A DNA stretch of 64,000 nucleotides from Candidatus Yanofskybacteria bacterium RIFCSPHIGHO2_01_FULL_44_24 (GTDB taxonomy: Bacteria; Patescibacteriota; Minisyncoccia; 2-02-FULL-40-12; GWA2-44-9), in NCBI GenBank assembly GCA_001794215.1, contig MGJK01000012.1, forward strand, positions 4,834 through 68,833, in the 5' to 3' direction. Positions 1 to 46,979 of the stretch are shown here, in pieces. Each line of letters starts with the position of its first letter. Within the stretch, counting starts at the first letter, position 1. Under the pieces are notes generated by a model that did no database searches, had not been told where the DNA came from, and was given only the letters and a program-made list of their open reading frames with translations. The position numbers and the translations under genes were made by a program.

Positions 1-2
1 AG

Positions 3-1181
3 TTACAACAAAGACTCGATCTCCTTGACCATCTTGTCCTCGGAGAATTTGAAGAGGACGGTTTGGTGGGCCTGAATGCTGAGTTCCTGTCGAAGACGGT
101 CATTGCCGAGGATTTCCCGGATTCGATTAGCTATCTGATCGGGGTTTTTAGGCTCAACCATAAATCCGTTTTTGCCGTCTTCGATAATCTCGGGTACGGC
201 GCCGACGTTAGTTGCGATAACCGGAGTTTTGGCGGCCATAGCCTCTATTAATGCCCATGGGAAGCCTTCTTTGACCGAGGGCAGGACAAAAACATCAAAT
301 GCGGTGATAAATTTGGAAGCCTCCGGTATCTGTCCAAGGAGAAAGATCTTATGGCTAAGTCCGTGTTCAGCGATCATCAATTCTAACTTTTGCCTCTCCT
401 GCCCGTCGCCGATTATTATAAATGCTGTATCTTCAATATCCTTAAATTTTTCAGCCGTGAGTATGAAATACTCCAAGCCTTTGGGAGGGTAAAAATTGGC
501 GATAGTACCGACTATATTTTTGGCCTGAAATATCTTACCGGAATGGCGGGCTATCTTTTCGAATAACTTCAACCGGGCTTCTTCGCGGGGGAGGTAGGAG
601 GTTTTGTAAGTATCGAGGCCGTTGTGAATCAAGGCCAATCTATCCCTGGGAATGATCTTCATTTTCTGGGCTTGTCGAAGATCATGTTCATTGTTTACTA
701 CGATTACGTCTTTCCAACTGCTTCCGAGTTTCTCCAGCCTGACCCATAGCCATCTTTTCCATGCCGGCCAAGGGTCGTTAAAAGTCCAACCGCCTATTCG
801 ATAGATGACTTTAGGGCGAGTAGTATGGTAGCGCAGTAGCGCAGTAGCGAGGGAGCCTATAAAACCGGCCTTGGAACTGTTCAGAAAAATCGTTTCCGGC
901 CGGAAACTTTTGATCAGGTTTCTGATTTCCGAAACCGCCTTCACGTCCTTTACTGGCGCAGTTTCTCTTCTCAGAAACTTGAGGTCATGAACGGGAATTC
1001 CGTTCCGTCGAAGCTGTTCCTGAAACATCTTTCCTCCATCTTGGCCGACGGCAACGAGAATCTGATATTTCTCAGGGGTCAGCCTCCGCACAAGGGTATA
1101 CAAAAACTGTTGGGCTCCTCCCCAATCCGATTGAGTTATGACGAACAGGACTCGTTTTTTGGAATTGATTTCCAGCCCCAT
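3..1181 (-). CDS. glycosyltransferase family 4 (GT-B fold)
   Basis: ORF 3..1220 with TAA at 3-5. C-terminal GT4 signature EGFPWALIEAMAAKTPVIATNVGAVPEIIEDGKNGFMVE and N-terminal KRVLFVITQSDWGGAQ. Start chosen at MGLEINSKK (1181); the longer 1220 start would overlap the divergent gene at 1205. Confidence 0.8.
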   Translation of the reverse strand: MGLEINSKKRVLFVITQSDWGGAQQFLYTLVRRLTPEKYQILVAVGQDGGKMFQEQLRRNGIPVHDLKFLRRETAPVKDVKAVSEIRNLIKSFRPETIFLNSSKAGFIGSLATALLRYHTTRPKVIYRIGGWTFNDPWPAWKRWLWVRLEKLGSSWKDVIVVNNEHDLRQAQKMKIIPRDRLALIHNGLDTYKTSYLPREEARLKLFEKIARHSGKIFQAKNIVGTIANFYPPKGLEYFILTAEKFKDIEDTAFIIIGDGQERQKLELMIAEHGLSHKIFLLGQIPEASKFITAFDVFVLPSVKEGFPWALIEAMAAKTPVIATNVGAVPEIIEDGKNGFMVEPKNPDQIANRIREILGNDRLRQELSIQAHQTVLFKFSEDKMVKEIESLL

Positions 1182-1204
1182 ATATGGCATTATAATATAG
1201 AAAA

Positions 1205-2359
1205 ATGGCCGAAAAATCAATCACGATCTTCACTACCGCCTACAAGCCTTTTATAGGCGGATCCGAAATAGCAATTGAACAAATCAGCCGACGATTGCCG
1301 GATATTTTTTTCAATATCATAACTCCAAAACTTCGCGGTGATCTTAAGTGGGAGGAGGCCACAGGAAACGTGAAAATAAACAGGGTCGGGATTGGATGGC
1401 GACCGTTAGATAAGATGCTTTTTCCCGTTTTGGGGTTTCTACGGGCCGGCGGTTCGCCGTCTGTAGTTCATTCTTATCAGGCGTCATATGGAGGCGGAGC
1501 CGGGTGGGTTTTTAAAGTTTTCCATCCCAAATCTTTTTTTATTTTAACCCTGCAGGAGGGCAAGGATTTTGAAAAGCAGGGGTTTTTTATAAATTTTTTC
1601 AGAAATTTAATTATTAAAAAGGCCGACGCTATAACGGCGATCAGCAATTACTTGGCCGATTACGCCCGCAAGATAAATCCAAAGGCCAAGATCGCGGTCA
1701 TTCCCAATGGAGTGGACCTTGAAAAATTTAAAATTCAAAATGAAAAATTTAAAATTGAAGAACTCAAAAATAGACTAAAAATAGAAGACGGTGATAAGAT
1801 TGTCATTACCATTTCGAGGCTGGTGGAGAAAAATGGAGTGGGAGATCTGATAGAAGCGATCAGTAAGTGCAAAATCGCTAACCCAGAGCAAAGAATTAAG
1901 TTGATGATCATCGGGTCAGGATCGCTTGAGGAAAATTTAAAGATCAAAGTTCAAAAATCAAAATTACAAGACAGCGTTCTTTTCCTGGGGGATATTCCTT
2001 ACGATGAAATTCCTGCCTACTTAGCTATATCAGATGTTTTTGTGAGGCCCTCGTTTTCTGAGGGCTTAGGGAATGCATTTCTTGAGGCGATGGCGATGGG
2101 TGTTCCGATAATCGGTACGCCGGTCGGCGGTATACCCGATTTCCTTCAGGACGGAATTACAGGTCTTGCCTGTAAGGTCAGAAATCCGGACGATATAGCT
2201 AAGAAAATAAGCAGAATCTTGGCGGATGAAGGCCTGAGAAGATTGCTTGGAGAAAACGGAAGAAAACTTGTTCATGAAAGATACGATTGGGACTTCATTG
2301 CTCAAAAGTTTGGAGCAACATACAACCCTTTAATTCAAAATGAAAATATCAAAATGTAA
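1205..2359 (+). CDS. glycosyltransferase family 4
   Basis: N-term ITIFTTAYKPFIGGSE and C-term EGLGNAFLEAMAMGVPIIGTPVGGIPDFLQDGITG (E-x7-E motif). Contains an in-frame AT-rich tandem repeat coding EKFKIQNEKFKIEELKN. Confidence 0.85.
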   Translation: MAEKSITIFTTAYKPFIGGSEIAIEQISRRLPDIFFNIITPKLRGDLKWEEATGNVKINRVGIGWRPLDKMLFPVLGFLRAGGSPSVVHSYQASYGGGAGWVFKVFHPKSFFILTLQEGKDFEKQGFFINFFRNLIIKKADAITAISNYLADYARKINPKAKIAVIPNGVDLEKFKIQNEKFKIEELKNRLKIEDGDKIVITISRLVEKNGVGDLIEAISKCKIANPEQRIKLMIIGSGSLEENLKIKVQKSKLQDSVLFLGDIPYDEIPAYLAISDVFVRPSFSEGLGNAFLEAMAMGVPIIGTPVGGIPDFLQDGITGLACKVRNPDDIAKKISRILADEGLRRLLGENGRKLVHERYDWDFIAQKFGATYNPLIQNENIKM

Positions 2360-2438
2360 AATTCAGGTTACTCAACACTTCATTAGAAAAGTTTTGAGTT
2401 TCAATAATTTTTAACTTTGATTTTTAAATTTTAAATTT

Positions 2439-3593
2439 ATGCGAAGCATTTTAATTACAACCGGAATTTTCCCTCCCGATATTGGCGGGCCGGCTTCTTA
2501 CGGAAAAATATTAGCCGAGAAATTATCCAAGGATTTCAGGGTTACGCTGATTACTTATTCTTCAAAATTAAATTGGGCCGAAGATAAGAAGCTATCTTTC
2601 AAGGTGGTCAGGGTTTGGAGGAAAATTCCCAAATTTTTGAGGCACTTAGTTTACTTTTTCCAAGTTGTTTCATTGGCGAAGAAGCAAGACGTGATATTTG
2701 CCCTTAATTCTGTAAGCGCCGGAGTGCCGGGATTATTGGCGGCCAAGATGCGCAAGAAGAAATTTTTTGTAAAAGTCGTCGGGGATTATGCCTGGGAGAT
2801 CGCGGTTAATAAGAGAAAAACTTCTCTTTTAATGAACGATTTCCAAAAATCCAAAAGAAAAGGCTGGATCGGGGTGCTTCATAAAATTCAATCTTGGCTT
2901 ACCAAAAACGCCGACGGAGTAATAGTTCCTTCTGAGTATCTGGGCAGGGTCGTCAGGGGATGGGGAGTGTCTCAGAATAAGATTCACGTGGTTTATAATC
3001 AGGTAGAGTTTAAAAAATCAGAATTAACCAAGGAAGAGGCCCGAAAGAAGATAGATATATCGGGCAATATCATCGTATCAATCGGCCGGCTGGTGCCTTG
3101 GAAGGGGTTCAGGATGCTGATCAAAATAATGCCTGAACTTCTGAAAATAAATCAGTTTTTCCGCTTGGTTATTATCGGAGACGGTCCTGAAAAATCGAAT
3201 CTTGATTCGATGGTCAAGAATATGAGACTCGAGAAGAAGGTTTATATTGTTGGGCGCAAGTCTCAGTCGGAGGTGGCCGATTATTTAGCGGCCAGCGATA
3301 TATTCGTTTTGAACACCGGTTACGAGGGCTTTTCGCATTTGATACTTGAGGTGATGACGGCCGGCGTACCTGTGGTTACTACGACCGTCGGAGGCAACAA
3401 AGAAATTATCCATCAGGGGGAGAACGGATTTATGGTTAAGTACAATGATGAATTTAATCTGATCGAAGCTATCAAAACAGTTTGGCAGGTTCCGGAAATG
3501 CGCCAGCGTTTTATAGACGGCGGACTTAAAGCTTCCGGGTTGTTCAGTGTAGATTCCATGTTCCAGGAGACAGTCAAAGTCCTAAAAAGCTAA
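2439..3593 (+). CDS. glycosyltransferase family 4
   Basis: C-term EGFSHLILEVMTAGVPVVTTTVGGNKEIIHQGENGFMV. Preceded by the AT-rich leader aatttttaactttgatttttaaattttaaattt. Confidence 0.85.
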   Translation: MRSILITTGIFPPDIGGPASYGKILAEKLSKDFRVTLITYSSKLNWAEDKKLSFKVVRVWRKIPKFLRHLVYFFQVVSLAKKQDVIFALNSVSAGVPGLLAAKMRKKKFFVKVVGDYAWEIAVNKRKTSLLMNDFQKSKRKGWIGVLHKIQSWLTKNADGVIVPSEYLGRVVRGWGVSQNKIHVVYNQVEFKKSELTKEEARKKIDISGNIIVSIGRLVPWKGFRMLIKIMPELLKINQFFRLVIIGDGPEKSNLDSMVKNMRLEKKVYIVGRKSQSEVADYLAASDIFVLNTGYEGFSHLILEVMTAGVPVVTTTVGGNKEIIHQGENGFMVKYNDEFNLIEAIKTVWQVPEMRQRFIDGGLKASGLFSVDSMFQETVKVLKS

Positions 3594-3614
3594 AAGACTA
3601 AAGACTATGGCTTT

Positions 3615-4826
3615 ATGCTCTCAGCATTAGTCATTTCACCAGCAATGAAATTATTGATGATATCGGGTGATCGAAGTTTAGCTCAAGGCAAAAAGGGCGC
3701 TTTTTACAATACCTTAGAAGAACTTCGCAGGCATTTTGAAAGAGTTGTCATCATCTGCCCGCCTATCGGAAATTCAAAACTGAAAATTGTAAATTATTTC
3801 GATAATGTCGAGGTCCATCCTTCTCCGTGGCCGTTGGTATTTCAGCCTTTGTGGATTCTTCGCGAAGGCTCGCGGATTATAAGAGTTGAAAATTCAAAAT
3901 TGCCCGCCTTCGGCCAAGCCGGGGCGAGGCCGGAGAAAATTGAAAATTGGTTTATGACCGTTCATGAGTACCCGCCCTTTTATAACGGCATCGGGGCGCG
4001 GCTGTTATGGCAAAAGATAAAGGTTCCTTACCTGCTTGAAGTTTTTCATGTCCCCGGATACCCAAGATCGGCTAATTTAAAAGAGATTCTTTATAAGAAA
4101 TTAACAGGAGCCTTTATCGGTTATGATACCGCTAAGACTTCAGCCGTCAGAGTCATGAATGAAGATATGGGAGATTTTCTTGAGAAGGCCGGAGTACCGA
4201 GAAAAAAGATCAAACTCATTCCGGCTATCTATATCGATTTTGATGTTTTTAGGCCGGTGAATCTCATCAAAGAATACGACCTCATTTTTATTGGCCGGTT
4301 AGAATCTAACAAGGGAGTAGACCTATTGCTCAAAGCAATAGAATTTTCAATTTTTAATTTAAAATTTTCAATTAAATGTTTAATTGTCGGAGAAGGCTTA
4401 TTGAAAGAGGAGTTAAAATTAAAAATTAAAAATTTAAAATTGCAGGACAATGTCCTGCTTCATGGTTTCGCCAAAGATTCCCGTGAAATATCCGAGCTGA
4501 TGAATAAGTCTAAAATCTTGGTAATGCCGTCGTATAACGAGGGCGGACCCCGGGTAGTAGTCGAGGCTTTAGCGTGCGGGGTGCCGGTACTGGCATCAAG
4601 GGTCGGAATAGTGCCGAATTTGCTTAAAAATGGCTTAGGATGCGAGATTATCGACTGGAAGGCCGAAGATATTGCCAAGAAGGCGCAAGCTCTTCTGGGC
4701 GATCCTGTGAGGTATGGCGAATTCAGTAAAAACGGCCCCAAAATAGCGGCTCAATTTGAAAGAAGGGCGGCAATAAGGAATTACGCCGAGGAACTCCACA
4801 AAATAGGTCAAAACCGGACAAACTAA
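3615..4826 (+). CDS. glycosyltransferase family 4
   Basis: C-term EGGPRVVVEALACGVPVLASRVGIVPNLLKNG. Alternative start at MKLLMISGD (3645). In-frame AT-rich tract coding EFSIFNLKFSIKCL...LKLKIKNLKLQDN. Confidence 0.8.
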   Translation: MLSALVISPAMKLLMISGDRSLAQGKKGAFYNTLEELRRHFERVVIICPPIGNSKLKIVNYFDNVEVHPSPWPLVFQPLWILREGSRIIRVENSKLPAFGQAGARPEKIENWFMTVHEYPPFYNGIGARLLWQKIKVPYLLEVFHVPGYPRSANLKEILYKKLTGAFIGYDTAKTSAVRVMNEDMGDFLEKAGVPRKKIKLIPAIYIDFDVFRPVNLIKEYDLIFIGRLESNKGVDLLLKAIEFSIFNLKFSIKCLIVGEGLLKEELKLKIKNLKLQDNVLLHGFAKDSREISELMNKSKILVMPSYNEGGPRVVVEALACGVPVLASRVGIVPNLLKNGLGCEIIDWKAEDIAKKAQALLGDPVRYGEFSKNGPKIAAQFERRAAIRNYAEELHKIGQNRTN

Positions 4827-4951
4827 CCGGTTAAAGTTATGAACAGATAAGCCTTTCCCCCGTATCTCTAAAAGTAATATAATTAATGCAGTGTTTTTAA
4901 CTCTTAGATTCCCCTTTTAGGCACGGATAAAACGTGCTTAGCGGTGCTTCT

Positions 4952-6547
4952 ATGTTTTTTATGGATAAGGCAACAGACAGTAAAAAAACCAGTAAATGGT
5001 CCTTTTTGGGGGTATTATTTGCCGTCTTAGCGGCATTTTTATTTTTTTCCGGCAGTGCTTCAGCCGGAGGCAACGCCATTGATACGGCCGATTATATCTA
5101 TTTTCGCATTGATACCGAAATAAATGTTTTAAATGATAAATCGGTTCTTGTTAAATGGTCATGCGGTGGCGGAGCCACCAGCGGTAGCTTGAGTATTTAT
5201 CAAGGCTCGGTTACCGATGGTACTTCATCGGACAGCGATGGCTTGGTAAATGGTATTGTTCAGATTGCTTCTCAATCGTTGGAAAATGCTGGCGCTAACG
5301 GATCTGGCTGTGATGGAGGGGAATCAATAACGGCCAGCGTTTCTCTGGGCGGATGGGTCAGTAGAACATGGGCTTCTTCCATTACTGATACGGCAGGAGG
5401 CTTTATTAACAGGGCCAGTATGGATTATACGATCGTTGTTAATGGGATAGTCGAACAATTAGGGAATACCCTAACTCTTAATGGCACCACTGCTTCGGCT
5501 ACTTACAGCGGGACGGTTGCCTCTCAATCGTACAGCAATTACAGCGGTACCTATAAGAAATATATTGCAGGATCTACCGACGCAGGAACGGTTAAGGGTG
5601 GAGCCGATGGATATGTAAATAGGACTTCTTCGGCCTTAACTATATCAGCCACAGCCTCTCAATCAGTTGACTTTGGCGCCTCTACCGATAGCGACTTAGA
5701 TGAGAGTAGCTTGTTATTCGGCCACGTTGTTACGGTGAGCGGTTATACGAACGGTTCGGTAAGGGCGGGCGACAGCTTGAGTATCGTATGTTCCAACGGA
5801 GGAGCCGGTTCTTGGTATTGTCCCGTACCCTTAGCTCATACCGGAACTACGGCGGAATATAGTTACCCATCGGGAGGTATTACTTCCCTCACCGCTACCT
5901 ATACTGACAGAACCACAGGCGGTGATGCGCAGGTTGCATCTACTATTACACCACCAACTCCTTCCGGAGGAGGATCTTATTCAGAATCCGGAACAGTTCC
6001 GGCCACCCCAGCCACTCCGGCAGTTCCGGCAACGCCTGCGACAGAGGAAACTCCAGCTGTTCCCGCAACTCCGGCAATACCGGCGACTCCAGCGACGCCC
6101 GCTTCTCGAGGTTTTGTTAGCTTGGCCGCGCTTAATCTTAAAGAAGGCGATGTCGTCAGTGCCGCGGGATCAGATGATCCGGATGTTTATATCGTCAATG
6201 ACTGGGGTTACAAGAGATTATTCTTGAATCCTGCAATATTCGGATTCTACGGGCATCTCGGAGGATTTAATAGGGTTAAAAATACTTCTTCCACGGTTCG
6301 TGATACCATGGTAACTTCCGGCTTGTTCAGGAATTGCGAAACTAATGACGCAAAAGTTTATGGAGTCGAAGCGACGGGCGAAGACGCAGGGCTTCTTCAT
6401 TGGGTGAATGTTAGCGGCGATGAAGCCGTAGCCCAAGATTCAGAATTCTTCAAGAAAGTATTCTGTATAAACGGCAACGAATTTAATTGGTACTCGAAAG
6501 GGGCAGACTACAGCTCTGTCGGTCAGGTCCCGGCCTATTCCCGCTAA
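4952..6547 (+). CDS. secreted Ser/Thr/Gly-rich surface protein with Pro-Thr/Ala repeat linker (candidate glycoprotein)
   Basis: Sec-type signal: basic n-region DKATDSKKTSK, hydrophobic WSFLGVLFAVLAAFLFFSG, then SASA cleavage site. The long body is S/T/G/N-rich and low-complexity with at least 7 N-x-S/T sequons (NGS, NGT, NYS, NRT, NTS, NVS). It has a PATPAVPATPA repeat linker and a distinct C-terminal domain. The ORF finder used GTG at 4934; the ATG at 4952 is in frame. Confidence 0.6.
   Translation: MFFMDKATDSKKTSKWSFLGVLFAVLAAFLFFSGSASAGGNAIDTADYIYFRIDTEINVLNDKSVLVKWSCGGGATSGSLSIYQGSVTDGTSSDSDGLVNGIVQIASQSLENAGANGSGCDGGESITASVSLGGWVSRTWASSITDTAGGFINRASMDYTIVVNGIVEQLGNTLTLNGTTASATYSGTVASQSYSNYSGTYKKYIAGSTDAGTVKGGADGYVNRTSSALTISATASQSVDFGASTDSDLDESSLLFGHVVTVSGYTNGSVRAGDSLSIVCSNGGAGSWYCPVPLAHTGTTAEYSYPSGGITSLTATYTDRTTGGDAQVASTITPPTPSGGGSYSESGTVPATPATPAVPATPATEETPAVPATPAIPATPATPASRGFVSLAALNLKEGDVVSAAGSDDPDVYIVNDWGYKRLFLNPAIFGFYGHLGGFNRVKNTSSTVRDTMVTSGLFRNCETNDAKVYGVEATGEDAGLLHWVNVSGDEAVAQDSEFFKKVFCINGNEFNWYSKGADYSSVGQVPAYSR
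6000..6105 (+). repeat. in-frame tandem oligonucleotide repeat encoding (P-A-T-P-A-V/I) linker
   Basis: Repeated gcnactccngcn units coding TPATPAVPATPATEETPAVPATPAIPATPATPA. This also creates the spurious alternate-frame ORF 5922..6227. Confidence 0.7.
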
Positions 6548-6565
6548 AAATCTGTTCTGATTAAG

Positions 6566-6590
6566 TTAAAACCCCTGAATGGGGTTTTAA
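6566..6590 (+). terminator. stem-loop terminator candidate after surface-protein gene
   Basis: ttaaaacccc tgaat ggggttttaa is a perfect 10-bp stem with a 5-nt loop and a T-containing tail, lying 19 nt after the stop codon. Confidence 0.55.
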
Positions 6591-6627
6591 CTTGGAAAAA
6601 TGGCAAAATAAGGGTATATTTCTAAGG

Positions 6628-8445
6628 ATGAGCAGGCTTCTTATTATTACCCAAAAAGTAGACATAAACGATGGCGTTTTAGGTTTTTTCCACGAGTGGA
6701 TCAGGAGGTTCGCCGAAAGATTTGATAAGGTCACGGTTATCTGCCTGAAAAAGGGCGAATACAATCTGCCGCCGAATGTTAAGGTCTTATCGCTGGGCAA
6801 GGAGACGTACGGCCATTATCCGGCAGTCGTCAGGCGGGCTTTGTTTTTTAAGAAATTTTATTCTTACATCCGACGGGAGAGAAATAATTACGACGCCGTA
6901 TTCGTACACATGAATCCTAAGTACGTTGTTCTCGGTGCTCCTTTGTGGAAAATTTGGGATAAAAAAATCAGCCTCTGGTATGCTCACGGCCATGTGGGCC
7001 CGACTCTTCAGTTGGCCGACAAGATGACCGATATTGCTTTTACCTCGACTCCGGAGGGCTATAGATTGAAAAGCGACAAGTTAGTCATAGTCGGACAGGG
7101 GATAGATACGGAAAAATTCAAAAATCAAAATTCAAAAATCAAAATTGATGATAGATTCAGGATTATATCCGTCGGGCGTATCACGGCCTCAAAGGATTAT
7201 GGAACGTTGATTCAGGCTTTATCCGTGCTTGGTAAGGATCTGAGAGATAAGCTGGAAGTTTCCATTGTCGGTGATACATGGACGGATAAAGACACTGCTT
7301 ATCTATCTGGATTGAAAGATAGGATAGCCGAGAAAGGATTAAGCGGAACGATAAAATTTTCTGGTCCGATTGCCAACAAAGATTTGCCGGGATTTCTTCA
7401 GTCAGCTGACCTATTCGTAAATATGGGATTGACCGGGAGTTTGGATAAGGCAATTTTGGAAGCGATGGCTTCGGGATTGCCGGTTTTGACCTGTAACGAG
7501 GCTTTGAAAAACGTTCTTGGTCTATATGCGGATAAGCTTATGTATCCGAAGGAGGATTCCGGCAAATTATCGGAAAAAATATCCTTGATGATGAAAATGG
7601 GTGGCCGCGAAAGAGCATCTTTGGGTGCCGGCCTGAGAGATATTGTCATAAGAGATCATAATATTGACGGTCTGATAGGCAAAATATCTAACTCAATCAA
7701 GGGCGTCCCTGCCAATCTAAATGTCGGTGACATTTACAACCGGCAGATAAAGGGTAAATTTGAAGGGAACTATGAGTATCATCGCTGGAAGAGCTCACCG
7801 GTCAAAAGGGCGGGGTATGAAATGACCCGGAGTTTGATTCGGGGTAATATATTGAAAAGCGGTTTGGGTTTCAGGGATTACCTTGAAGTGGGTCCCGGTC
7901 CGGGGACGTGGACGAAGATGTTTTTGGAGGCGAGTCCGAAAGCAAATTTTGATTTAGTGGATATATCCTCCGAAATGCTCAACTTAGCTAAGCAGAATCT
8001 TGCCGGTCATGGCAATTTAAGGTACATAGAGACCGATTTTCTGCGCTTCAATCCCGATAAGAAGTACGACATATTCTTTTCTTCCCGGGCAATTGAGTAT
8101 ATGCCGGATAAGGATGGTTTAGTAAAGAAAATATCCGATCTTTTGAGGCCGGGAGGCAGGGGATTCGTCATCACTAAAAATCCTAAATATTTACGGAGCA
8201 AATTGGCCGGCAGACATATCTCGGAATTTCATAAGGGCCAGATCTCTCCCGAAACATTCAGGGCCTTATTGATTGGAAATGGTTTCAAGGATGTCGAAAT
8301 TTATCCGGTTACTTTTGTTTTTCCCGTTTTCAACTCCGCCTTCATGAACAGGACGGTATCAGGGATCTTTTCTTACCAGAAATTGAATACGTTAAATAAT
8401 TTTTTTGCAGAATCCTATTTAATTAGGTTCAAGAAACCTAATTAA
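6628..8445 (+). CDS. fusion protein: GT4-like glycosyltransferase (N) + class I SAM-dependent methyltransferase (C)
   Basis: N-half has GT-B features (GLTGSLDKAILEAMASGLPVLTCNE). C-half has methyltransferase motif I LEVGPGPGTWTKMF and motif post-I LRPGGRGFVIT. The ORF finder used TTG at 6592; the ATG (MSRLLIITQ) is at 6628. Confidence 0.8.
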   Translation: MSRLLIITQKVDINDGVLGFFHEWIRRFAERFDKVTVICLKKGEYNLPPNVKVLSLGKETYGHYPAVVRRALFFKKFYSYIRRERNNYDAVFVHMNPKYVVLGAPLWKIWDKKISLWYAHGHVGPTLQLADKMTDIAFTSTPEGYRLKSDKLVIVGQGIDTEKFKNQNSKIKIDDRFRIISVGRITASKDYGTLIQALSVLGKDLRDKLEVSIVGDTWTDKDTAYLSGLKDRIAEKGLSGTIKFSGPIANKDLPGFLQSADLFVNMGLTGSLDKAILEAMASGLPVLTCNEALKNVLGLYADKLMYPKEDSGKLSEKISLMMKMGGRERASLGAGLRDIVIRDHNIDGLIGKISNSIKGVPANLNVGDIYNRQIKGKFEGNYEYHRWKSSPVKRAGYEMTRSLIRGNILKSGLGFRDYLEVGPGPGTWTKMFLEASPKANFDLVDISSEMLNLAKQNLAGHGNLRYIETDFLRFNPDKKYDIFFSSRAIEYMPDKDGLVKKISDLLRPGGRGFVITKNPKYLRSKLAGRHISEFHKGQISPETFRALLIGNGFKDVEIYPVTFVFPVFNSAFMNRTVSGIFSYQKLNTLNNFFAESYLIRFKKPN

Positions 8446-8484
8446 ATTTTTACTTTTTAATTTAGAATTTTTACTTGATTCATA

Positions 8485-8883
8485 ATGGCCAATTTTAAAA
8501 ACAACTACGATTTAGAAGAGAGGGTTGCCAGATTTGGCGAGGAAATAATTCTTTTTTGCCGAAGAGTCAAAAAAGATCCGATAGTCTTGCCCCTCTTGGT
8601 TCAGTTAATAAAATCAGCTACCAGTATCGGCGCTAACTACATGGAGGCCAATGGAGCCAGCTCGAGAAAGGATTTTGCCAATAAGATCTACATAGCCAAA
8701 AAGGAAGCCCAGGAAACCAAATACTGGCTGCGTATGCTCTCGGTTTATTATCCAAATGAATTAGAAAAACTTCAGAAATACCGGCAAGAAAGTCACGAGT
8801 TCACTTTGATATTTCACAAAATTGTCCGTACCATTAAAGATAAAGATTCCAAGGAACCGGATGCAATAAAAATTTTAAAGTAA
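8485..8883 (+). CDS. four-helix-bundle protein (23S rRNA intervening-sequence protein / Avd-like family)
   Basis: 132 aa. The YDLEER...IGANY.EA.......F......IA..E..ET..WL pattern is typical of the PF05635/TIGR02436 family. A paralog lies at 46558. Confidence 0.75.
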   Translation: MANFKNNYDLEERVARFGEEIILFCRRVKKDPIVLPLLVQLIKSATSIGANYMEANGASSRKDFANKIYIAKKEAQETKYWLRMLSVYYPNELEKLQKYRQESHEFTLIFHKIVRTIKDKDSKEPDAIKILK

Positions 8884-8898
8884 AAATTAAAAATTCTT

Positions 8899-9468
8899 AT
8901 GGTAATCGAACTATTCGGTCTGCCGGGGGCGGGCAAAACAACTTTTGCTAAACAGTTAGAAGCTGACGGCTTTACCGTGGTTAAGATAAGGACCAAGAAA
9001 GAGCTTCTTTATTTTAATTTTGTCCATTTAGTCCGTCATCCGATCAGTTCGCTGATGAACGCCATCTTCATTTTAAAAAATTCACCTAATCCCGGACTGC
9101 GCTATTATAAATTCATGAATTTTTTCTTAGATATGAATGCCCGCTACGAAAAAGCTCGATTGTACGGCAAGGCAGTTTTGGATCAGGGATATTTTCAGAA
9201 TGTCTTATCGGTATTTGAGAATCCGATGAGTGCCGAGATTATGAAGAGGTATATAAAGCATCTTCCTAAGCCGGACAAGCTGATCGTTTTAGACATCTTA
9301 GCCGAGGAGAGTTTAAAAAGAGCGGGGGAAAGGGGATATTACTCGCGCGAAAGATTTGGTGATGAATATGTCGAGAATTGGAGAAAAGTAGTTTTGCAGA
9401 ATTATGATTTGTTCAAGAAAGTCGTAGGGGATTTGGGGGTAGAATATGAAATCGTGAGTAATAATTGA
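8899..9468 (+). CDS. P-loop nucleoside/nucleotide kinase-like protein (dNK/dTMP-kinase-like fold)
   Basis: Walker A LFGLPGAGKTTFAKQL at the N-terminus. Downstream PKPDKLIVLDILAEESLKRAGERGYYSRE resembles the PD-hhhLD...R..RGR..E lid of the deoxynucleoside kinase family. Confidence 0.55.
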   Translation: MVIELFGLPGAGKTTFAKQLEADGFTVVKIRTKKELLYFNFVHLVRHPISSLMNAIFILKNSPNPGLRYYKFMNFFLDMNARYEKARLYGKAVLDQGYFQNVLSVFENPMSAEIMKRYIKHLPKPDKLIVLDILAEESLKRAGERGYYSRERFGDEYVENWRKVVLQNYDLFKKVVGDLGVEYEIVSNN

Positions 9469-9602
9469 AAATTCAAAAATAAAAATGCAAAATTATCGAA
9501 GCTCATTTAGCAACAAAATGAGCAATCCAAATTTTAAACTTTTTAATCAATTTTCAATGATAATAATTCTAAAATTTAAAATTCTAAATTAAAAATTTTG
9601 TA
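9469..9602 (+). repeat. AT-rich intergenic element with central hairpin (family copy D)
   Basis: gaaaattcaaaaataaaaatgcaaaattatcg + hairpin gctcattt agcaacaa aatgagc + T-rich arm ...aattttaaactttttaat... ending at the ATG of the next gene. Same architecture as the copies at 37157 and 38225. Confidence 0.6.
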
Positions 9603-11885
9603 ATGAAGCTTGTCTATATCACCAACGCCAAAATACCTTCAGAAAAGGCTCGTAGTTTGCAGATTATGAAATCATGCGAAGCTTTTGCCACGCAGAACGA
9701 GGCCAATATGCGAATGAATGCCGATGATGCGGATAGGGGTCAAAAAGTTGAAGTCGAGCTTGTTTTACCAAGGCGGGTAAATGCGCCGAAGGATGACCCT
9801 TTTAATTTTTACAGCGTAAAAAGGATTTTCGGGATAAAAAAGATTTTTAATTTCGATCTGTTCGGTCTTTCTTTCGTACCAAGAAAATTTGCATTTTATG
9901 TCCAATCGCTGAGCTTCGGTCTTTTCGGAGCGGTCTACCTGTCGATTTTTTACGGTAATAAAACAGTTTTTTACTCCCGTGATTTCGCCACGCTTTTCTT
10001 TCTGTGTTTGTTCGGGTTCGATCCTATTGCGGAAGTTCACGACTATCGTTCGTCAAAGTTCCGATGGGATGTGAAATATGTTTTAAAAAATTCGAGAAAA
10101 GTTATTGTTAATTCGGAAGGAACGCTCGAGCAACTAAGAAAGCATTATGAACTTGATGCGTCGAGAGTCTTAGTTGCACCCAACGGGGTTGATTTAGAAT
10201 TCTTCAGTATTAAAGAGTCGCAAGATGAGGCGAGGAGAATTTTGAATATTCCGCAAAACAAGAAAGTCGTTGCCTACATAGGCCGTCTCGAAACTGTTGG
10301 TCAGGACAAGGGCGTCGGTACTCTGCTGGAGGCCTTTAATATACTAAATACAAAATACGATATACCAAATACACATCTTCTCATTGTCGGCGGTCCATAC
10401 CATTTAGTTGAAAAATACAAAGCAGAGGTTAGGAATCAGCATAATATTACCTTCACCGGCCAGGTAGAGTATCAGAAGGTTCCTCTGTACCTAAGAGCGG
10501 TTGATGCGGTTGCGATCCCTTTACCGAAAAATCAGCACGCAATTACAACTTCGCCGATTAAACTTTTTGAATATATGGCCGCCGGAAAAGCTATCGTTGC
10601 TTCGGACTTGCTCTCGATAAGACAATATTTGAATTCGGAAAATGCGGTATTCTTTGATGCGGAAAATTCCGAAGATTTAGCCGGAAAACTCAAGGCCGTT
10701 TTAGGTGACGGTATATTACGCAATAAAATCTCTAAAAATGCGTTACAGGATGCCACCCGATACTCTTGGATTTCTCGTGCTCAGAAAATTATTAATTTCG
10801 CTGTCAGTAAAACTTCAGTACATACACTCAAGGCCGTTCTCTATTTCGGCGATTTTGATCCCAATTATGCCCGCAATAGCGTGATCATTAAAGGACTTCA
10901 GAAGAATGGCGTAGAAGTTTTATTGTGCAATGACCGGACGAAGGGATTCAAAAAATACGTGAATTTGGTCAAAAAATTCATAGATTTGGATAAGCGATTC
11001 AACTTAGTTATCGTCGGTTACTCTGATTCCCGCTTCATGGTTCCCCTAATTAATATTTTGACCCGGAAGAAGGTAGTTTGGGATGCCTTCTACTCTATCT
11101 ACGATAACTGGATTTTCGATAGAAAGTTGGCCGCACCTAATAGTATGAAGGCGAGTTATTATTGGACGATGGACTGGTTTTCTTGTTGGCTTTCCGATCT
11201 CGTCTTATTAGATACGCAGGCCAACGCCGATTATTTCATTAGAACTTTTAATATGTCCCGCGATAAAGTAAGGCGCGTTTTTATCGGCGCAGACGACGAA
11301 GCATTATATCCAAAAAAGAAAACAATATCAGACAAGTTCATCGTAGAATTTCATGGTAACTATATTCCCGTTCACGGCTTAGAGTATATTATAAAAGCTG
11401 CTAAAATATTAGAAAAACATCAGGATATTATGTTCTATGTCATTGGTGGAGGACAAGAGCACGGTAAAATAAAGAAATTAGCCGAGGATTTACGAGTTTC
11501 CAATATAACTTTCATGGATAAAATGCCTCAGTACATGATCTCTGAGTATATAAAGGAGGCTGATGTTTGTTTGGGTCTTTTAGGAAATTTGGATCGCGGA
11601 GGCAGGGCAATCCCAAATAAGGTCTACGAGGCTTCGGCGATGGAAAGAGCAAGTCTGAATATGGATGGTCCGGCTATTCACGAGTTATATACCGATCGGG
11701 AAAATATACTTTTGTGTCATGGCGGAGATTCTCAGGATATAGCTGATAAAATCTTAGAATTGAAAAATAATCCTCAGCTGAAGGATCGCATAGCTAAAAA
11801 TGCCTACCAGTTATATTTGGCCAATGGAACCCCGAAGACAATAGGGGATCACTTGATTAAGCTGATCGGCCGATTATTATTTTAG
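9603..11885 (+). CDS. two-domain glycosyltransferase (tandem GT-B modules)
   Basis: 760 aa. First module shows GT4-like features (IGRLETVGQDKGVGTLLEAF...FEYMAAGKAIVASD). A second GT-B-like module follows (FHGNYIPVHGLEYIIKAAKILEKHQDIMFYVIGGGQEHGK). Confidence 0.7.
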   Translation: MKLVYITNAKIPSEKARSLQIMKSCEAFATQNEANMRMNADDADRGQKVEVELVLPRRVNAPKDDPFNFYSVKRIFGIKKIFNFDLFGLSFVPRKFAFYVQSLSFGLFGAVYLSIFYGNKTVFYSRDFATLFFLCLFGFDPIAEVHDYRSSKFRWDVKYVLKNSRKVIVNSEGTLEQLRKHYELDASRVLVAPNGVDLEFFSIKESQDEARRILNIPQNKKVVAYIGRLETVGQDKGVGTLLEAFNILNTKYDIPNTHLLIVGGPYHLVEKYKAEVRNQHNITFTGQVEYQKVPLYLRAVDAVAIPLPKNQHAITTSPIKLFEYMAAGKAIVASDLLSIRQYLNSENAVFFDAENSEDLAGKLKAVLGDGILRNKISKNALQDATRYSWISRAQKIINFAVSKTSVHTLKAVLYFGDFDPNYARNSVIIKGLQKNGVEVLLCNDRTKGFKKYVNLVKKFIDLDKRFNLVIVGYSDSRFMVPLINILTRKKVVWDAFYSIYDNWIFDRKLAAPNSMKASYYWTMDWFSCWLSDLVLLDTQANADYFIRTFNMSRDKVRRVFIGADDEALYPKKKTISDKFIVEFHGNYIPVHGLEYIIKAAKILEKHQDIMFYVIGGGQEHGKIKKLAEDLRVSNITFMDKMPQYMISEYIKEADVCLGLLGNLDRGGRAIPNKVYEASAMERASLNMDGPAIHELYTDRENILLCHGGDSQDIADKILELKNNPQLKDRIAKNAYQLYLANGTPKTIGDHLIKLIGRLLF

Positions 11886-11919
11886 TTGATTTTCTATTAA
11901 TTTTTTTTATACTTTCTAT

Positions 11920-12621
11920 ATGTTTGTACGCAAAAATAACTGCCGTATTTGCGGAAGCTCTGATCTTGTGAGCGTACTCAATTTAGGCGATCAGCCACCG
12001 GCGAATGCTTTTCTAAAAAGAGAAGACTTTAAAAGCGAAAAGGCATATCCTCTTAATGTTTACTTTTGTAGCGGATGTAATCTTTTGCAACTAAGAGACA
12101 TAGTTTCCCCGGATATTTTATTTCGGGATTATGTTTATGTTTCTTCAACTTCACGCAGTTTTGTTGAGCATTTTGAATCTTATGCGGCGGATGTAGCTAA
12201 AGACTTTGATGTAAAAAACAAATTAGTTATCGATCTGGGAAGTAATGACGGTGTATTATTGAAGCCCTTTAAATCCTTAGGCGCCAAAGTTCTTGGGATT
12301 GATCCGGCAATCGAAATTGCCCGAAAAGCAACCCAAGAGGGAATTGAGACTTTGCCGGAATTTTTTACACCCGACCTCGCTAAAGACATAGTTGCTAAGA
12401 GGGGTAATGCCAAAATAATAAGCGCGAACAATGTCTTCGCTCACATAGACGACGTTAAGGCTGTCTTAGAGGGAGCTGATATCTTATTATCCGGTGACGG
12501 GGTCTTTGTCGCTGAGTTTCCTTACTTAGTCGACTTTATTAATAAAGGCCTGTTTGATACGGTTTACCACGAACACCTTTCTTATTATGGAGTCAGGCAG
12601 TATTTTCCAATCCCTAAATGA
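11920..12621 (+). pseudogene. NDP-sugar C-methyltransferase, N-terminal fragment (disrupted by IS insertion)
   Basis: Zn-ribbon N-term CRICGSSD...CSGCNLLQL and methyltransferase core (VIDLGSNDGVLL). Colinear with the intact 420-aa paralog at 34476 up to ...YHEHLSYY. The stop codon lies inside the IS terminal inverted repeat. Confidence 0.8.
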
Positions 12622-13961
12622 CACCCAAATATCTTATCATATCTTTGCCGAAATTTGTTTAAAAATCTTTAATCTTTCTTCTTGTAATCTCTTAGCTGAC
12701 TCGAAATGGGTCAGCTTTTTTGGTTCTGTTTCTAGTGATTCTCTAGTTATTCCTGGAACAAGATATTCTTGAAGATTTTTTATGGTTAGTAATTTCTGAC
12801 AGGGAGTAAGATATTCTTTGTATTCTTTTTTAATCTTACCTTTTTCATCAATTTGATCCTCAGAAAAAGCGCAATGCCGATGGAAATTAAGATGAGGATT
12901 CAAATATTTTCTCAGGAACTCATTAATCAATATGGCATGTTTCTTTGGTATGTGCGTATAGCCCATAGTCTTTCTGATGACGGCTCCATTCTTACCTTCC
13001 GCTAAAGCATTGTCATTGCTGTGTCTGGCCCTTGATTTAGTCTGACAGATATTCAGTTTGTTTAGAAGATTAGCCACCACCTTGTTAATATATTCCGATC
13101 CGTTATCGGAATGGAAGTTGATGACTTTAAAAGGAATTAGGCTAAGAAGTTCTTCCAAGACTGGAATTAAATGTTGTTCGGATATTGTTTCTACGCAGCC
13201 GACAAATTCCCATTGGCTTATCTCATCTACGATATTAATGTAGTATACTCCCTTTTCCTTGTCTAAATCACCTTGGTGAACCGAATCTATCCTCAGATAA
13301 CCCGGTTTACCTTGATTATCGGGTTTTCTCCTCTCTCCGATAGGAATAGCCGTTTTCTTGGTTTTAGTGTAAACCAGGACCCGACTGGTATATATCTTCG
13401 TCTTTCTGAGATTGTAGATATGGCTTTTGGATATGTGGCTTAATTTCTCAAACTTATCATCGCCATAAATCTGATACATATCCTCAAGACATTTCTTGAG
13501 AGCATAGCCATTAGGATTTTCAAAGGCTGAAGCCACGTCAGCCAGCAACCTAATATCGGGAACTTCATAAAAGGTCTGAAAGGCATTTTGAGTCCTTTCT
13601 TTTACAAAAACTTGGCCGGTATCTTTCTTCCTTTTGATTAATCGATCAACCTGGCTATCAGAATATCCGCTTACAGATTTAATATATTCTTTGATAACCG
13701 CTTTATTCTTTTTCGTCTCGGAAGAATATCTAAACTTTCCGAGTGTTTGTCCGATCCACTCGTAAGTCTTGGCCTTACCGGCAGTTCTCTTAAATTCAGC
13801 ACATTGCGAAAGTTTTACAAACTCTCTAAGCTGTGCCAGGCTTGTTACTGACTCGTCGTTCATATCCATAGTCATATATCGGCATGATACGACGAGCCAT
13901 TCACTTAAGGGAGCTTTCGGCTCCTTTCTGTGTTGGAATGACCCTTGATTTGGGTGTCATT
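12617..13961 (-). mobile_element. insertion sequence (single DDE transposase ORF) inserted into C-methyltransferase gene
   Basis: Perfect 14-bp terminal inverted repeats AATGACACCCAAAT at 12617-12630 and 13948-13961 (reverse complement). Total 1345 bp with one 412-aa rve-type transposase. No clear target-site duplication is visible. Confidence 0.8.
12637..13875 (-). CDS. DDE-type transposase / integrase-core (rve) family
   Basis: Catalytic triad context RIDSVHQGD ... FHSDNGSEY ... NDNALAEGKN (D, D, E) with an N-terminal HTH-like region. Occupies nearly the whole IS. Confidence 0.8.
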   Translation of the reverse strand: MTMDMNDESVTSLAQLREFVKLSQCAEFKRTAGKAKTYEWIGQTLGKFRYSSETKKNKAVIKEYIKSVSGYSDSQVDRLIKRKKDTGQVFVKERTQNAFQTFYEVPDIRLLADVASAFENPNGYALKKCLEDMYQIYGDDKFEKLSHISKSHIYNLRKTKIYTSRVLVYTKTKKTAIPIGERRKPDNQGKPGYLRIDSVHQGDLDKEKGVYYINIVDEISQWEFVGCVETISEQHLIPVLEELLSLIPFKVINFHSDNGSEYINKVVANLLNKLNICQTKSRARHSNDNALAEGKNGAVIRKTMGYTHIPKKHAILINEFLRKYLNPHLNFHRHCAFSEDQIDEKGKIKKEYKEYLTPCQKLLTIKNLQEYLVPGITRESLETEPKKLTHFESAKRLQEERLKIFKQISAKI

Positions 13962-34034: not shown

Positions 34035-34059
34035 AACAGGATTTGTCTGAAAGCGATAA

Positions 34060-34410
34060 ACAGAAGTAATGAGGGCGCGGCATAAAGTCACTCCGCCTTG
34101 GCTTATTCGAGGCACGCCAATAAATTCCGCTCGCCCCTTATCTATCTTCAGCACGCCTCCGTCCCGCCAGCGACGGGACTCAGCTATGTTCGCCCCGCCC
34201 CTTCAGAACCATGCAAGGGGCGGGGTCTCAAATGCTTCAGATAGACAAGGGGCTTCGCCTTAGTTTTTCGTAAATCCCTTCAATAGGTTAAAGCCTCGCT
34301 TAAGGTTTTAAATAGAAGCCTGCGCAAATCTCCCAATATGCCGGCCGGGGCTTCGCTTAAAGTTGGTTTTGTAAATTCCTTATAGGGTTAACTAATCTAC
34401 CCTCGGTAGC
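34060..34410. other. GC-rich, hairpin-dense intergenic region (possible structured RNA / foreign leader) upstream of intact C-methyltransferase
   Basis: Unusually G+C-rich for this genome. Strong hairpins gccccgcccctt-cagaaccatgc-aaggggcggggt (34192-34227) and gtcccg-ccagcga-cgggac (34161-34179). ggggcttcgc repeats twice. No protein-like ORF; the 64-aa ORF 34069..34263 is low-complexity. Confidence 0.4.
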
Positions 34411-34475
34411 TATCGTTGATTTAATTAATTATTTCCTGTAACATCACAATGAATAAATCGGGAGGAGCTTAAACC

Positions 34476-35785: not shown

Positions 35786-36003
35786 TCGGGTAGTGAATGT
35801 TTGAGATGCAATTTTCTAAAGAAAATTGCCACGGCAAAGCCACTCAAACATCTACTACCTGACGATTTGAAAAAGCATGTATTTAGGGTATATTAACCAT
35901 AGGATCAAATCCGAATAGCGAAACAAGAAATTCGAAACAAACAATAAGCCCGAAGCTTTTAGAGGGTGGCCGGTGGGCGTGCGGGGTATTCAAATGTTTG
36001 GAG

Positions 36004-36038
36004 TTTCGATCTTCGATATTGTTTCGTATTTCGAAATT
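36004..36038 (+). promoter_or_regulatory. conserved T-rich half of palindromic leader motif (TTCGAYATTGTTTCG-KW-TTTCGAWATT), ~20 nt upstream of start codon
   Basis: tttcgatcttcgatattgtttcgtatttcgaaatt. Near-identical copies lie at 46924 and 54547, each ~20 nt from a start codon and each paired with an upstream A-rich complement (cgaaacaa). Confidence 0.55.
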
Positions 36039-36058
36039 CTAATTTCTAATTTAAGTAG

Positions 36059-37156: not shown

Positions 37157-37270
37157 TTCTAATGAAAAATTCAAAAATCAAAGTGTAAAATTATTGTAAC
37201 CCGTAAAACCCCTTGATTTTTACGGGTATCCTGAATTTTTAATTTTGATATTTACATTTTAAATTTTGGT
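37157..37270 (+). repeat. AT-rich intergenic hairpin element (family copy A)
   Basis: ctaatgaaaaattcaaaaatcaaagtgtaaaattattgtaa + hairpin acccgtaaaa-cccctt-ga-ttttacgggt + T-rich arm gaatttttaattttgatatttacattttaaatttt, ending at an ATG. Confidence 0.7.
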
Positions 37271-38224
37271 ATGAAGAAGATAGCATTTGTTGTCGGAGTT
37301 TTTCCAGCCGTGTCTGAAACCTGGATGATCAATCAAGTCGCCGGTGCTTTAGATCGGGGTTTTGACGTGGATATTTATTCTTTTGAACGTCAGGACGAAA
37401 AGAATGTGTCCGATGTTTATCGTAAATATAAAATGTCTGAGCGGACGAGGTATATAGGGATGCCCGAGAACAAAATCGTAAGAATCGCTTTGGCTCTGCC
37501 GAAAATTATCAGACTTTTGTTAGTTTCTCCGGGAACTTTATTCAAAAGTTTGAATGTCGGGGAATACGGCCGGAATGCCCTATCTCTGAAATTTCTTTTC
37601 TGGTCTGAAGCTTTTGCCGGCAAAAAATACGATCTTATCCATCTCCATGACGGAGTTATAGCCGCTCGGTTTTTGACCATAAGAGATATAGCCGGAATCA
37701 AGGGTAAACTGCTGACCTCCTTCTATGGACAGGACGTGAGCCGGAGGGTAAAAGAAAATCCTCATATTTACGACAGGCTCAAGAAGACTGATTCGGAGTT
37801 TATCGTCATGTCGGATTATATGAGAAAACGCGTAGTAGATATGGGGTTTGACGAAAAAAGAGTTCACACCGTGTCGATATTCGGGATTGATGTTGACGCG
37901 CATCCGTTTAAGGAGAGGACAATTTCTCCCGGCGAGACATTCGAAATTGCGGCGATGGGCCGGTTTGTGGAGAAAAAGGGATTTGACGACATTCTAAGGG
38001 CCTTAGCCATCGTAAAGCAGAAGGCGAATAGGAAGTTTCATTTCAGTTTTATCGGAGGCGGAGAACTTGATCAAAAGCTTAGAAAAATGACCACAGACCT
38101 CGATTTGGATGATGTCGTCTCTTATAAAGGATACATGAAGATAGAAGATGCAATGAAATATTTAATGGGTATGCATCTGTACCTTCAGCCGTCAAAGATG
38201 GCGTCTGACGGAGACCAGGAATAA
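37271..38224 (+). pseudogene. GT4 glycosyltransferase, N-terminal 317-aa fragment (gene split by repeat element)
   Basis: GT4-like through ...LYLQPSKMASDGDQE, then a TAA exactly where the E-G-x-P...LEAMA motif should continue. The element copy at 38225 follows. Confidence 0.65.
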
Positions 38225-38338
38225 CCTAATGAAAAATTTAAAAATCAAAATGTAAAATTATTGTAACTCGCGAAATTAACCGACTTTTGCGAGTATCCTT
38301 AATTTTTAACTTTGATCTTTACATTTTAAACTTTTTAG
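38225..38338 (+). repeat. AT-rich intergenic hairpin element (family copy B) inserted inside a GT4 gene
   Basis: cctaatgaaaaatttaaaaatcaaaatgtaaaattattgtaa + hairpin actcgcgaaa...ttttgcgagt + T-rich arm. Collinear with copy A. The hairpin has compensatory substitutions (cccgtaaaa/ttttacggg versus ctcgcgaaa/ttttgcgag). Confidence 0.7.
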
Positions 38339-46497: not shown

Positions 46498-46557
46498 AAA
46501 AACTCGAATAACGAAATTCGAAACTCGAAACAAAACCAGAAAATTAGAAATAAAATC

Positions 46558-46908: not shown

Positions 46909-46923
46909 TTTAGGAATTTATAA

Positions 46924-46958: not shown

Positions 46959-46979
46959 AGGATTTCGAATTTACATAAA

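Follow-up and report, generated by a model that had tools for sequence, protein, structure and literature searches.

Several genes for GT4-family glycosyltransferases in a 64,000-nt stretch of DNA (the window) from Candidatus Yanofskybacteria, a member of the Patescibacteria or Candidate Phyla Radiation (CPR), contain short A-rich tracts that are translated in frame into low-complexity segments. These tracts are very probably short in-frame heptanucleotide simple sequence repeats (SSRs), located at tolerant sites of the GT4 proteins and changing by whole units, rather than pieces cut from the palindromic elements that lie between the genes. Four sites in GT4 proteins are used: a loop of the N-domain (relative position ~0.12), the linker that follows the NGVD motif (~0.47), the segment before the hhhhGxG strand (~0.60), and the helix before the V.F.G motif (~0.65). 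These sites are solvent-exposed and sequence-tolerant; the peptides found there originate at the nucleotide level, and whole-unit insertions and deletions occur in nature. All tract positions are those of the window, whose proteins match, with full identity, KKT81856.1 and related entries from the GW2011_GWA2_44_9 and RIFCSP assemblies.

Heptamer arrays in three glycosyltransferase genes

Three genes, referred to as GT1, GT3 and GT5, carry the tracts (Table 1), and their Pfam matches are all above the gathering score. An earlier note, made from the letters of the sequence, had described an A-rich 21-mer that recurs in frame within these genes, and the 21-mer and its relatives are indeed present where it had placed them. 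GAAAAATTCAAAAATCAAAAT occurs exactly at 7111-7131, with one mismatch at 37164-37184 and 38231-38251, with two at 7125-7145 and 1721-1741, and with three at 1944-1964 and 9466-9486; when up to three mismatches are allowed these seven matches compare with 0.04 expected from 100 shuffles. The agreement of the GT5 21-mer with the intergenic sequence at 37164-37184 in 20 of 21 positions was confirmed, as were the translations (EKFKIQN-EKFKIEE, NLKIKVQKSKLQD, EFSIFNLKFSIKCL...LKLKIKNLKLQDN and EKFKNQNSKIKIDD). The tracts also lie where the note had put them in the proteins: those at 1721-1763 and 7111-7153 come after the NGVD/GID motif, where the N- and C-domains join, 1931-1972 and 4407-4441 form the helix before V.F.G, and 4342-4376 precedes the hhhhGxG strand (CLIVGEG in GT3, relative position 0.60). 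Three features are additional to those of the earlier note, namely the tract at 3768-3795, a GT3 insertion of ~17 residues, and the derivation of the last ~9 codons of GT1 from a palindrome arm.

The tracts consist of three to five copies of NAAAAWT variants such as AAAATTC, AAAAATC, AAAATTT and AAAATTA. Tandem Repeats Finder (TRF) reports arrays of period 7 or 14 at 1723-1756 (4.9 copies), 1939-1962, 4342-4373, 4415-4441 (3.9 copies at 95%) and 7113-7146 (2.4 copies of 14 nt at 100%). A unit-based score, (NAAAAWT)x3 with a maximum of 18, was applied to both strands; it reaches 16-18 across the tracts and recovers all those of the earlier note together with 3768-3795 and the arms of the intergenic palindromes. 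This score and TRF were the informative detectors, since a strict period-7 filter on the window returned merely four tracts and a loose A-run regular expression gave 50 matches versus 24.6 in shuffled sequence (~2x). When synonymous codons were resampled with the codon usage of the window, the observed 7-nt periodicity was reached at P = 0.0002 to 0.06 per tract (0.003 for 1931-1972, 0.0002 for 4407-4441). Seven and three being coprime, any heptamer array yields one peptide of seven-residue period whatever the frame; a perfect (AAAATTC)n thus encodes the cyclic heptad KFKIQNS in any of them. It is this dependence on the heptamer that gives the apparent linkers their high content of Lys, Ile, Asn and Phe.

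Table 1. Glycosyltransferase genes, heptamer arrays and palindromes of the window
Feature	Position	Strand	Description
GT1, GT4-family (GT-B fold) glycosyltransferase	1205-2359	+	384 aa; three tracts; Pfam Glycos_transf_1 (1e-42) and Glyco_transf_4
Heptamer array, GT1 N/C-domain linker	1721-1763	+	two 21-nt copies (three heptamers each), EKFKIQN-EKFKIEE; polymorphic
Heptamer array, GT1 surface helix before VLFLG strand	1931-1972	+	NLKIKVQKSKLQD; score 17/18; TRF 1939-1962
GT1 C-terminal tail ..LIQNENIKM*	2331-2359	+	last ~9 codons = left arm of palindrome 2331-2440 (repeat family D8)
GT3, GT4-family glycosyltransferase	3615-4826	+	403 aa (393 from Met at 3645); four tracts; Pfam Glycos_transf_1 (7e-34)
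Heptamer array, GT3 N-domain loop (relative position 0.13)	3768-3795	+	NSKLKIVNY; score 16/18
GT3 lineage-specific in-frame insertion, ~17 aa	3887-3949 (about 3890-3945)	+	SKLPAFGQAGARPEKIE; flanked by two heptamer dimers
T-rich heptamer array (complement of the A-rich type), GT3	4342-4376	+	EFSIFNLKFSIK; score 17/18 on the minus strand; TRF 4342-4373
Heptamer array, GT3 helix before VLLHG (relative position 0.66)	4407-4441	+	ELKLKIKNLKL; score 18/18
GT5, GT4 and class-I methyltransferase fusion	6592-8445	+	617 aa (605 from Met at 6628); Pfam Glycos_transf_1 (1e-18) and Methyltransf_25 (1e-15)
Heptamer array, GT5 N/C-domain linker	7111-7153	+	(AAAATTCAAAAATC)x2.4 coding EKFKNQNSKIKI; polymorphic, with a frameshifting variant
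Intergenic palindrome	37157-37270	.	repeat families D7 and D10, inverted pair I5; fold z = -2.9
Sister palindrome copies	2331-2440, 38225-38338, 55918-55998

The earlier note proposed checking whether these segments are lineage-specific insertions; the tracts that it listed are not, as those of GT1 and GT3 align to solved GT4 structures without gaps or with four additional residues. Between GT1 and its PDB homologue BshA (2jjm, 3e-31) there is no gap through NLKIKVQKSKLQD and a gain of four residues through EKFKIQNEKFKIEE, GT3 aligns to WlaC (6eji, 2e-12) without a gap through EFSIFNLKFSIKCLIVGEGLLKEELKLKIKNLKLQD (4342-4441), and the length of the helix before V.F.G is constant in 30 orthologues. 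In the AlphaFold2 model of GT1, which has a predicted local distance difference test (pLDDT) score of 91, the array at 1721-1763 corresponds to the coil 171-180 and the beginning of helix 181-190, and that at 1931-1972 to the surface helix 242-251, ahead of the strand 258-262. The C-terminal tail of GT1 is absent from the aligned orthologues and is predicted to be disordered, with pLDDT <50 at residues 378-384.

The insertion in GT3 is missing from 33 of 36 GT3 orthologues, the other three of which have a 6-aa insertion there. It contains a GC-rich 31-nt core, CCCGCCTTCGGCCAAGCCGGGGCGAGGCCGG (3903-3933), between GAAAATTCAAAATTG and GAAAATTGAAAATTG; the core is present in one copy in the window, folds no better than shuffles (z = -0.9), and is not the palindrome. 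The near-identical 15-nt heptamer dimers around this core resemble the outcome of a small insertion with a duplicated target.

Length variants, orthologues and distribution

Two public assemblies differ from the window, over about 12 kb each, by repeat units only. The 171,636-bp ENA contig L005 matches window positions 1-12359 with no mismatch and one gap, the loss of a 21-nt repeat copy within 1721-1762; the protein variant P0122, from the 90%-identity clusters of the window's proteins, is GT1 minus exactly EKFKIQN (377 versus 384 aa). The 17,572-bp ENA contig L004 matches positions 628-12704 (12.06 kb), again with no mismatch and one gap, here of 14 nt, corresponding to one AAAATTCAAAAATC unit lost within 7113-7146; the loss brings a TGA into frame after EKFKNQN and truncates GT5, and the split products are annotated on the same contig as P0137 (168 aa, ending ...EKFKNQN) and P0135 (the remainder, 412 aa). 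Two more assemblies match the window without any difference, across 13.7 and 14.8 kb. In another lineage, proteins P0078 and P0187 are 99% identical and all three of their residue differences lie at the edge of an array. As one of two options the earlier note had considered a slippage-prone simple repeat tolerated at linkers, whose tandem copies could give length variation; the tracts are heptamer tandem arrays, unit-length losses fall exactly at two of them, and the predicted variation is thereby borne out. Knock-out alleles of two glycosyltransferases of the locus are present in public assemblies, GT5 in L004 and GT3 in a further scaffold, L088. The GT5 array locus was also sought in metagenomes, by a gapped pattern in one scan and a 30-mer in a second, and neither gave a match.

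The orthologue set comprised 84 Patescibacteria, with 80 loci from species-representative genomes added to L001, L002/L006 and L003; perfect period-7 arrays are often found at the same positions, with unrelated units. P0011 of L001, 53% identical to GT1, has a perfect (AAAATTC)x4.7 at the NGVD linker (AAATTCAAAATTCAAAATTCAAAATTCAAAATT) and (AAAATTT)x4.9, 92% matching, at the helix before V.F.G; P0015 of L002/L006 has CAAATTC/CAAAATC at the linker, and both sites lack an array in the closest GT1 orthologue (L003, 62% identity). Other linker units are AAAGTTC, read as KFKVQSS (L049, L071), AATTACG, read as NYELRIM (L027), AATTTCC, read as NFQFPIS (L014), AGTTCAC, read as FTVHSS (L054), and AATCACG-like units, read as NHESRIM (L032, L036). 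At the site of 3768-3795 the orthologues of GT3 display RITNYELRITN, RTTNYKLQTTN, SKLKIKNLKL and similar peptides of varying length. What recurs at each position is a type of repeat; neither the peptide nor the sequence is conserved. The pattern that the earlier note named as a refutation of its proposal, the same linker peptides encoded by unrelated nucleotides, is not what is seen; the orthologues differ in peptide and share the nucleotide-level process. Copying of arrays from paralogues or from intergenic DNA was considered and rejected, units being shared exactly within a locus to an only slightly raised extent. In L024, two diverged GT4 paralogues share a perfect (AAGTTAC) array at the same structural position (5762-5797 and 9469-9499), which hints at array-limited copying between paralogues; neither a recent duplication nor a long conversion tract accounts for the shared unit, the flanks of the arrays being ~50% identical.

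The survey of arrays covered 83 loci of Patescibacteria, 850 kb in all, and combined a simple gene caller with TRF at thresholds of at least 2.5 copies and at least 80% matches. Period 7 accounts for 150 of about 210 tandem repeats, as compared with 24 of period 6, 12 of period 8, 13 of period 9 and no more than three of any other; 117 of the period-7 arrays are in called genes and 33 are intergenic, and the latter make up 33 of the 38 intergenic repeats. Scored alone, the called genes contain 115 period-7 arrays versus 3.2 after codon shuffling within genes. The survey holds 77 distinct units, including GC-rich ones from a 58%-GC genome; the copy number is 2.5-5.6, with none longer among the 150 arrays, and 38 of the 117 coding arrays are 100% perfect. 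In-frame heptanucleotide repeats were found in the glycosyltransferase loci of 53 of the 83, and no coding array (0/117) was out of frame; a search for frame changes among the 150 arrays gave four candidates, one of them an antisense-strand call, which were read, without inspection, as gene boundaries and not as frameshifts.

The arrays are concentrated tenfold in GT4 genes. With GT4 membership assigned by a profile made from the orthologue alignment (332 of 747 genes), arrays of at least 3.5 copies number 80 in the 332 GT4 genes and 8 in the 415 others, which have equal total length (p = 2e-16); without the orthologues of GT1 the comparison is 55 versus 8 (p = 9e-13). Within GT4 proteins 330-450 residues long, array occurrence peaks at relative positions 0.10-0.15, 0.45-0.50 and 0.55-0.70. 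The window's tract at 3768-3795 belongs to the first of these peaks, 1721-1763 and 7111-7153 to the second, and 4342-4376, 1931-1972 and 4407-4441 to the third.

Origin of the arrays

Changes in the arrays are of whole units, as replication slippage would predict. A change of three heptamers (21 nt) keeps the frame with seven residues gained or lost, and a change of one or two shifts the frame and truncates the enzyme; the natural variants include an example of each. Slippage biased to 7-nt steps could make and homogenise the arrays while purifying selection holds total length and frame; turnover would swap units between lineages, and the arrays would persist where the protein accepts almost any sequence. 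A glycosyltransferase with such an array would be knocked out or altered in length unusually easily, and the cell may or may not make use of this. Many bacteria are on record as having too many heptameric SSRs, an excess that has been explained by polymerase slippage (PMC4679880, PMC4692102, summarising Mrazek et al. 2007).

A number of observations weigh against this reading. Arrays of 2.4-5.6 units are short, and may for that reason slip at modest rates; pure slippage also does not explain how arrays replace a helix of fixed length at constant length, why the unit is seven, or the tenfold preference for GT4. At the protein level no unit insertions or deletions were seen in ten other 90%-identity orthologue clusters, which differ in start and end annotation alone. 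The two unit-loss variants are taken from third-party assemblies of short reads, without a check against the reads themselves, and the 2-kb ENA scaffold L088, which belongs to the same population and has a chimeric end, carries a frameshifting 17-nt deletion in GT3 (4557-4573) that is off any array.

The palindromes of the window invite another origin for the tracts, in which pieces of a ~110-nt element were inserted in frame and kept as linkers, in the manner of the palindromic elements of Rickettsia; this is quite improbable and, for the tracts listed by the earlier note, which had raised it, is largely refuted. In each palindrome an arm of A-rich heptamers is followed by a variable GC hairpin, in which changes are compensated, and then by a T-rich arm. 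The 20/21 identity of the GT5 21-mer to the arms at 37164 and 38231, the presence of a complete element inside a GT4 gene (38225-38338), the left arm that supplies the last codons of GT1, the real 17-aa insertion of GT3 between heptamer dimers, and a slightly raised sharing of exact units between coding and intergenic arrays of one locus (8.8% versus 1.9%) would all fit such an origin. However, AT-rich coding arrays of other genomes match the window's palindrome arms at 18-20 of 21 positions, the same range as the window's own tracts, so a 20/21 match is what any two A-rich heptamer arrays give; arms and coding tracts resemble each other because both are built of heptamer repeats of one class. 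None of the coding tracts has the hairpin core, nor both arms in element order, and the only translated piece of the palindrome proper is the tail of GT1. The gapless alignment to solved structures and the unrelated units at the same sites in orthologues count further against exaptation, as does the complete element itself, which breaks the reading frame of the GT4 gene that it splits. Resemblance of a different kind, in which Lys/Ile/Asn-rich surface segments written in A-rich codons merely look like a repeat, is barely credible. EKF after NGVD and L-K-x-K-x-x-L-K-L before V.F.G are common in GT4 orthologues, and the residues encoded by AAA, AAT and ATT are preferentially written with these codons; convergence of composition or protein sequence is nevertheless refuted by the synonymous resampling and codon shuffling described above, by orthologues with 100% perfect nucleotide arrays, and by insertions and deletions of whole units.

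The arrays could also be a functional DNA or RNA motif within coding sequence, such as an internal promoter, a protein-binding site or an mRNA structure that regulates the glycosyltransferase operon; this is considered improbable. The arrays at 4342-4376 and 4407-4441 could pair as a hairpin and fold better than shuffles (z = -2.7), and sigma-70-like sequences overlap some tracts, as TTTAAA-N17-TAAAAT at 1727-1755 and also at 2334-2362, 4413-4440 and 9465-9493. Against this, arrays taken singly show no structure (z = -0.2 and +1.0), Rfam gives no match, and the pairs of arrays at 0.60 and 0.65 in other genomes are not inverted; because units differ within and between genomes, the GC-containing AACTGCC, AATTACG and ACGCCCG among them, there is no common motif and a promoter or binding-site role is unlikely. 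Internal promoters were rejected, the sigma-70-like sequences being weak matches (9/12) and inapplicable to the GC-containing units of other lineages. A more serious contender, possible yet doubtful, is that selection keeps the arrays as adaptive contingency loci, which would act as on/off switches (7 or 14 nt) and length switches (21 nt) that vary the surface glycans of an episymbiont. In its favour are a unit length that three does not divide, the location within genes for surface glycans, the tenfold enrichment in GT4, and a natural GT5 OFF variant that arose by exact loss of one unit (L004, assembly-derived); in addition, the reuse of the same structural positions with lineage-specific units and the many perfect arrays point to turnover that is still going on, not to decay. 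OFF alleles of classical contingency genes are frequent among sequenced genomes, whereas no coding array of the reference loci is out of frame and the arrays have few units; intergenic DNA shares the period-7 preference, and the period is therefore not explained by selection for frameshifting. The broader proposal that GT4 arrays are a conserved, selected mutational device across Patescibacteria, with each glycosyltransferase of a surface-glycan locus having its own array and slippage knocking out or re-lengthening single enzymes at random, so that cell surfaces diversify in a clonal population, is rather unlikely. Short heptanucleotide SSRs at tolerant GT4 sites, shaped by slippage and purifying selection, are the preferred reading.

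Neighbouring elements and comparison with known systems

The complete palindrome at 38225-38338 splits a GT4 gene (37271-38617) into a 317-aa N-terminal part (37271-38224) and a 92-aa C-terminal part (38339-38617); the element provides stop codons at its own 5' end, and an ATG follows directly after it. The two parts match positions 9-102 and 107-162 of the Glycos_transf_1 profile, and when joined they align to BshA (2jjm) in one stretch across the junction, with the five preceding residues (DGDQE) unaligned; the gene may be a pseudogene or encode a two-piece enzyme. A second palindrome family, with GAAATTC/GAAACTC/GAAATCC arms (GAAAYTC-type) and their complements, is located at 35907-36054, 46500-46974 and 54461-54597 (repeat families D11 and D14). 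Inverted heptamer arrays also bracket two small PF05635 genes (23S rRNA intervening-sequence protein, four-helix bundle): that at 8485-8883 lies within 8445-8897, with a T-arm followed by an A-arm of AAAATTN type, and that at 46558-46908 lies within 46498-46979, with an A-arm followed by a T-arm of GAAAYTC type. Such an arrangement is reminiscent of an rRNA intervening sequence whose loop holds an open reading frame, or of a small mobile cassette. An open reading frame for a 95-aa GIY-YIG nuclease domain (44501-44788) lies between two sugar-metabolism genes, with the inverted repeat CCCGTTAGAGCC...GGCTCTAACGGG around it, and a gene for an rve-family integrase/transposase (12637-13875, minus strand) lies within the glycan locus; contig MGKL01000015.1 of a same-organism assembly, GCA_001795655.1, ends inside the rve gene, as is typical of repeated insertion sequences. 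The long, GC-richer intergenic regions 34035-34475 (441 nt) and 60587-60881 (295 nt) contain several GC hairpins and have no Rfam or tRNA match; Rfam at the gathering threshold and a tRNA scan found nothing in the whole window.

Patescibacteria are ultrasmall episymbionts whose surface glycans probably mediate attachment to the host, and to our knowledge no means by which they vary their own surface has been described; the literature searched holds no description of phase variation, SSRs or heptamers in this group. Heptanucleotide SSRs and SSR-driven switching of glycosyltransferase genes are each of a kind already known. Not found in that literature were in-frame heptamers predominating over all other coding repeats, repeats concentrated in a single enzyme family, where they take four fixed structural positions, or lineage-specific units combined with uniformly short arrays. 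Arrays with a frame-breaking unit, reproducible sites and at least two whole-unit variants lead to the hypothesis that CPR surfaces vary by repeat slippage; if the arrays do act as a contingency device, they would be the first contingency loci described in the CPR, and of a repeat class, in-frame heptamers, not known in such use elsewhere. They also provide a new instance of the unexplained bacterial bias to 7-nt repeats. For annotation, heptamer arrays explain low-complexity peptides of the KFKIQNS, RITNYEL and YKLQTTN types in CPR proteins, and split glycosyltransferase genes beside arrays may be population variants, not errors.

The arrays share with the known heptanucleotide SSRs of bacteria, which include those of cyanobacteria (Calothrix, Nostoc), GGGAATC of Xanthomonas and TAACTGA of Beggiatoaceae (PMC4692102, PMC4679880), tandem 7-nt units, a strong period-7 excess, inverted intergenic pairs and lengths that differ between relatives; as in the Beggiatoaceae repeat, translated LSVISYQ, the translated array is a peptide of seven-residue period. 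The known SSRs are overwhelmingly intergenic, a genome usually has a single dominant unit, and arrays can reach dozens of copies, whereas the arrays described here are mainly genic (117 of 150), have at most 5.6 copies and 77 units, and are concentrated at four structural positions of a single enzyme family.

SSR-mediated phase-variable (contingency) loci are likewise on record (PMC2651432). The likeness to them lies in a unit that is not a multiple of three within the reading frames of glycan-building genes, in the truncation of the enzyme by unit loss (one natural variant), and in several glycosyltransferase genes per locus with a repeat of their own. Phase variation by SSRs in glycosyltransferase genes for surface glycans is known from Haemophilus, Neisseria, Campylobacter and Helicobacter, in the first three of them in lipooligosaccharide and capsule genes. 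Classical contingency tracts are homopolymers or tetranucleotides of many units, with high switching rates and common OFF alleles; the present arrays have three to five heptamers, and all 117 reference alleles are in frame.

Ogata et al. are said to have described in 2000 palindromic elements of Rickettsia inserted in frame in protein genes. Both systems have a hairpin-capable repeat family that is intergenic and also translated at fold-neutral surface positions; however, the Rickettsia elements are inserted whole (100-150 nt, adding 30-50 residues), while the tracts here add 0 or 4-7 residues and lack the core, and the whole palindrome splits the glycosyltransferase gene in which it lies. The FutA and FutB proteins of Helicobacter pylori contain a variable count of DDLRVNY heptads encoded by 21 nt, and provide a further case of a glycosyltransferase with seven-residue repeats and in-frame copy-number variation, which in Fut is between strains. 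The Fut repeat has a 21-nt unit under protein-level selection in a C-terminal dimerisation or 'ruler' region; in contrast, the repeats of the GT4 genes have a period of 7 nt, encode a peptide set by seven bases, and are located within the core GT-B fold.

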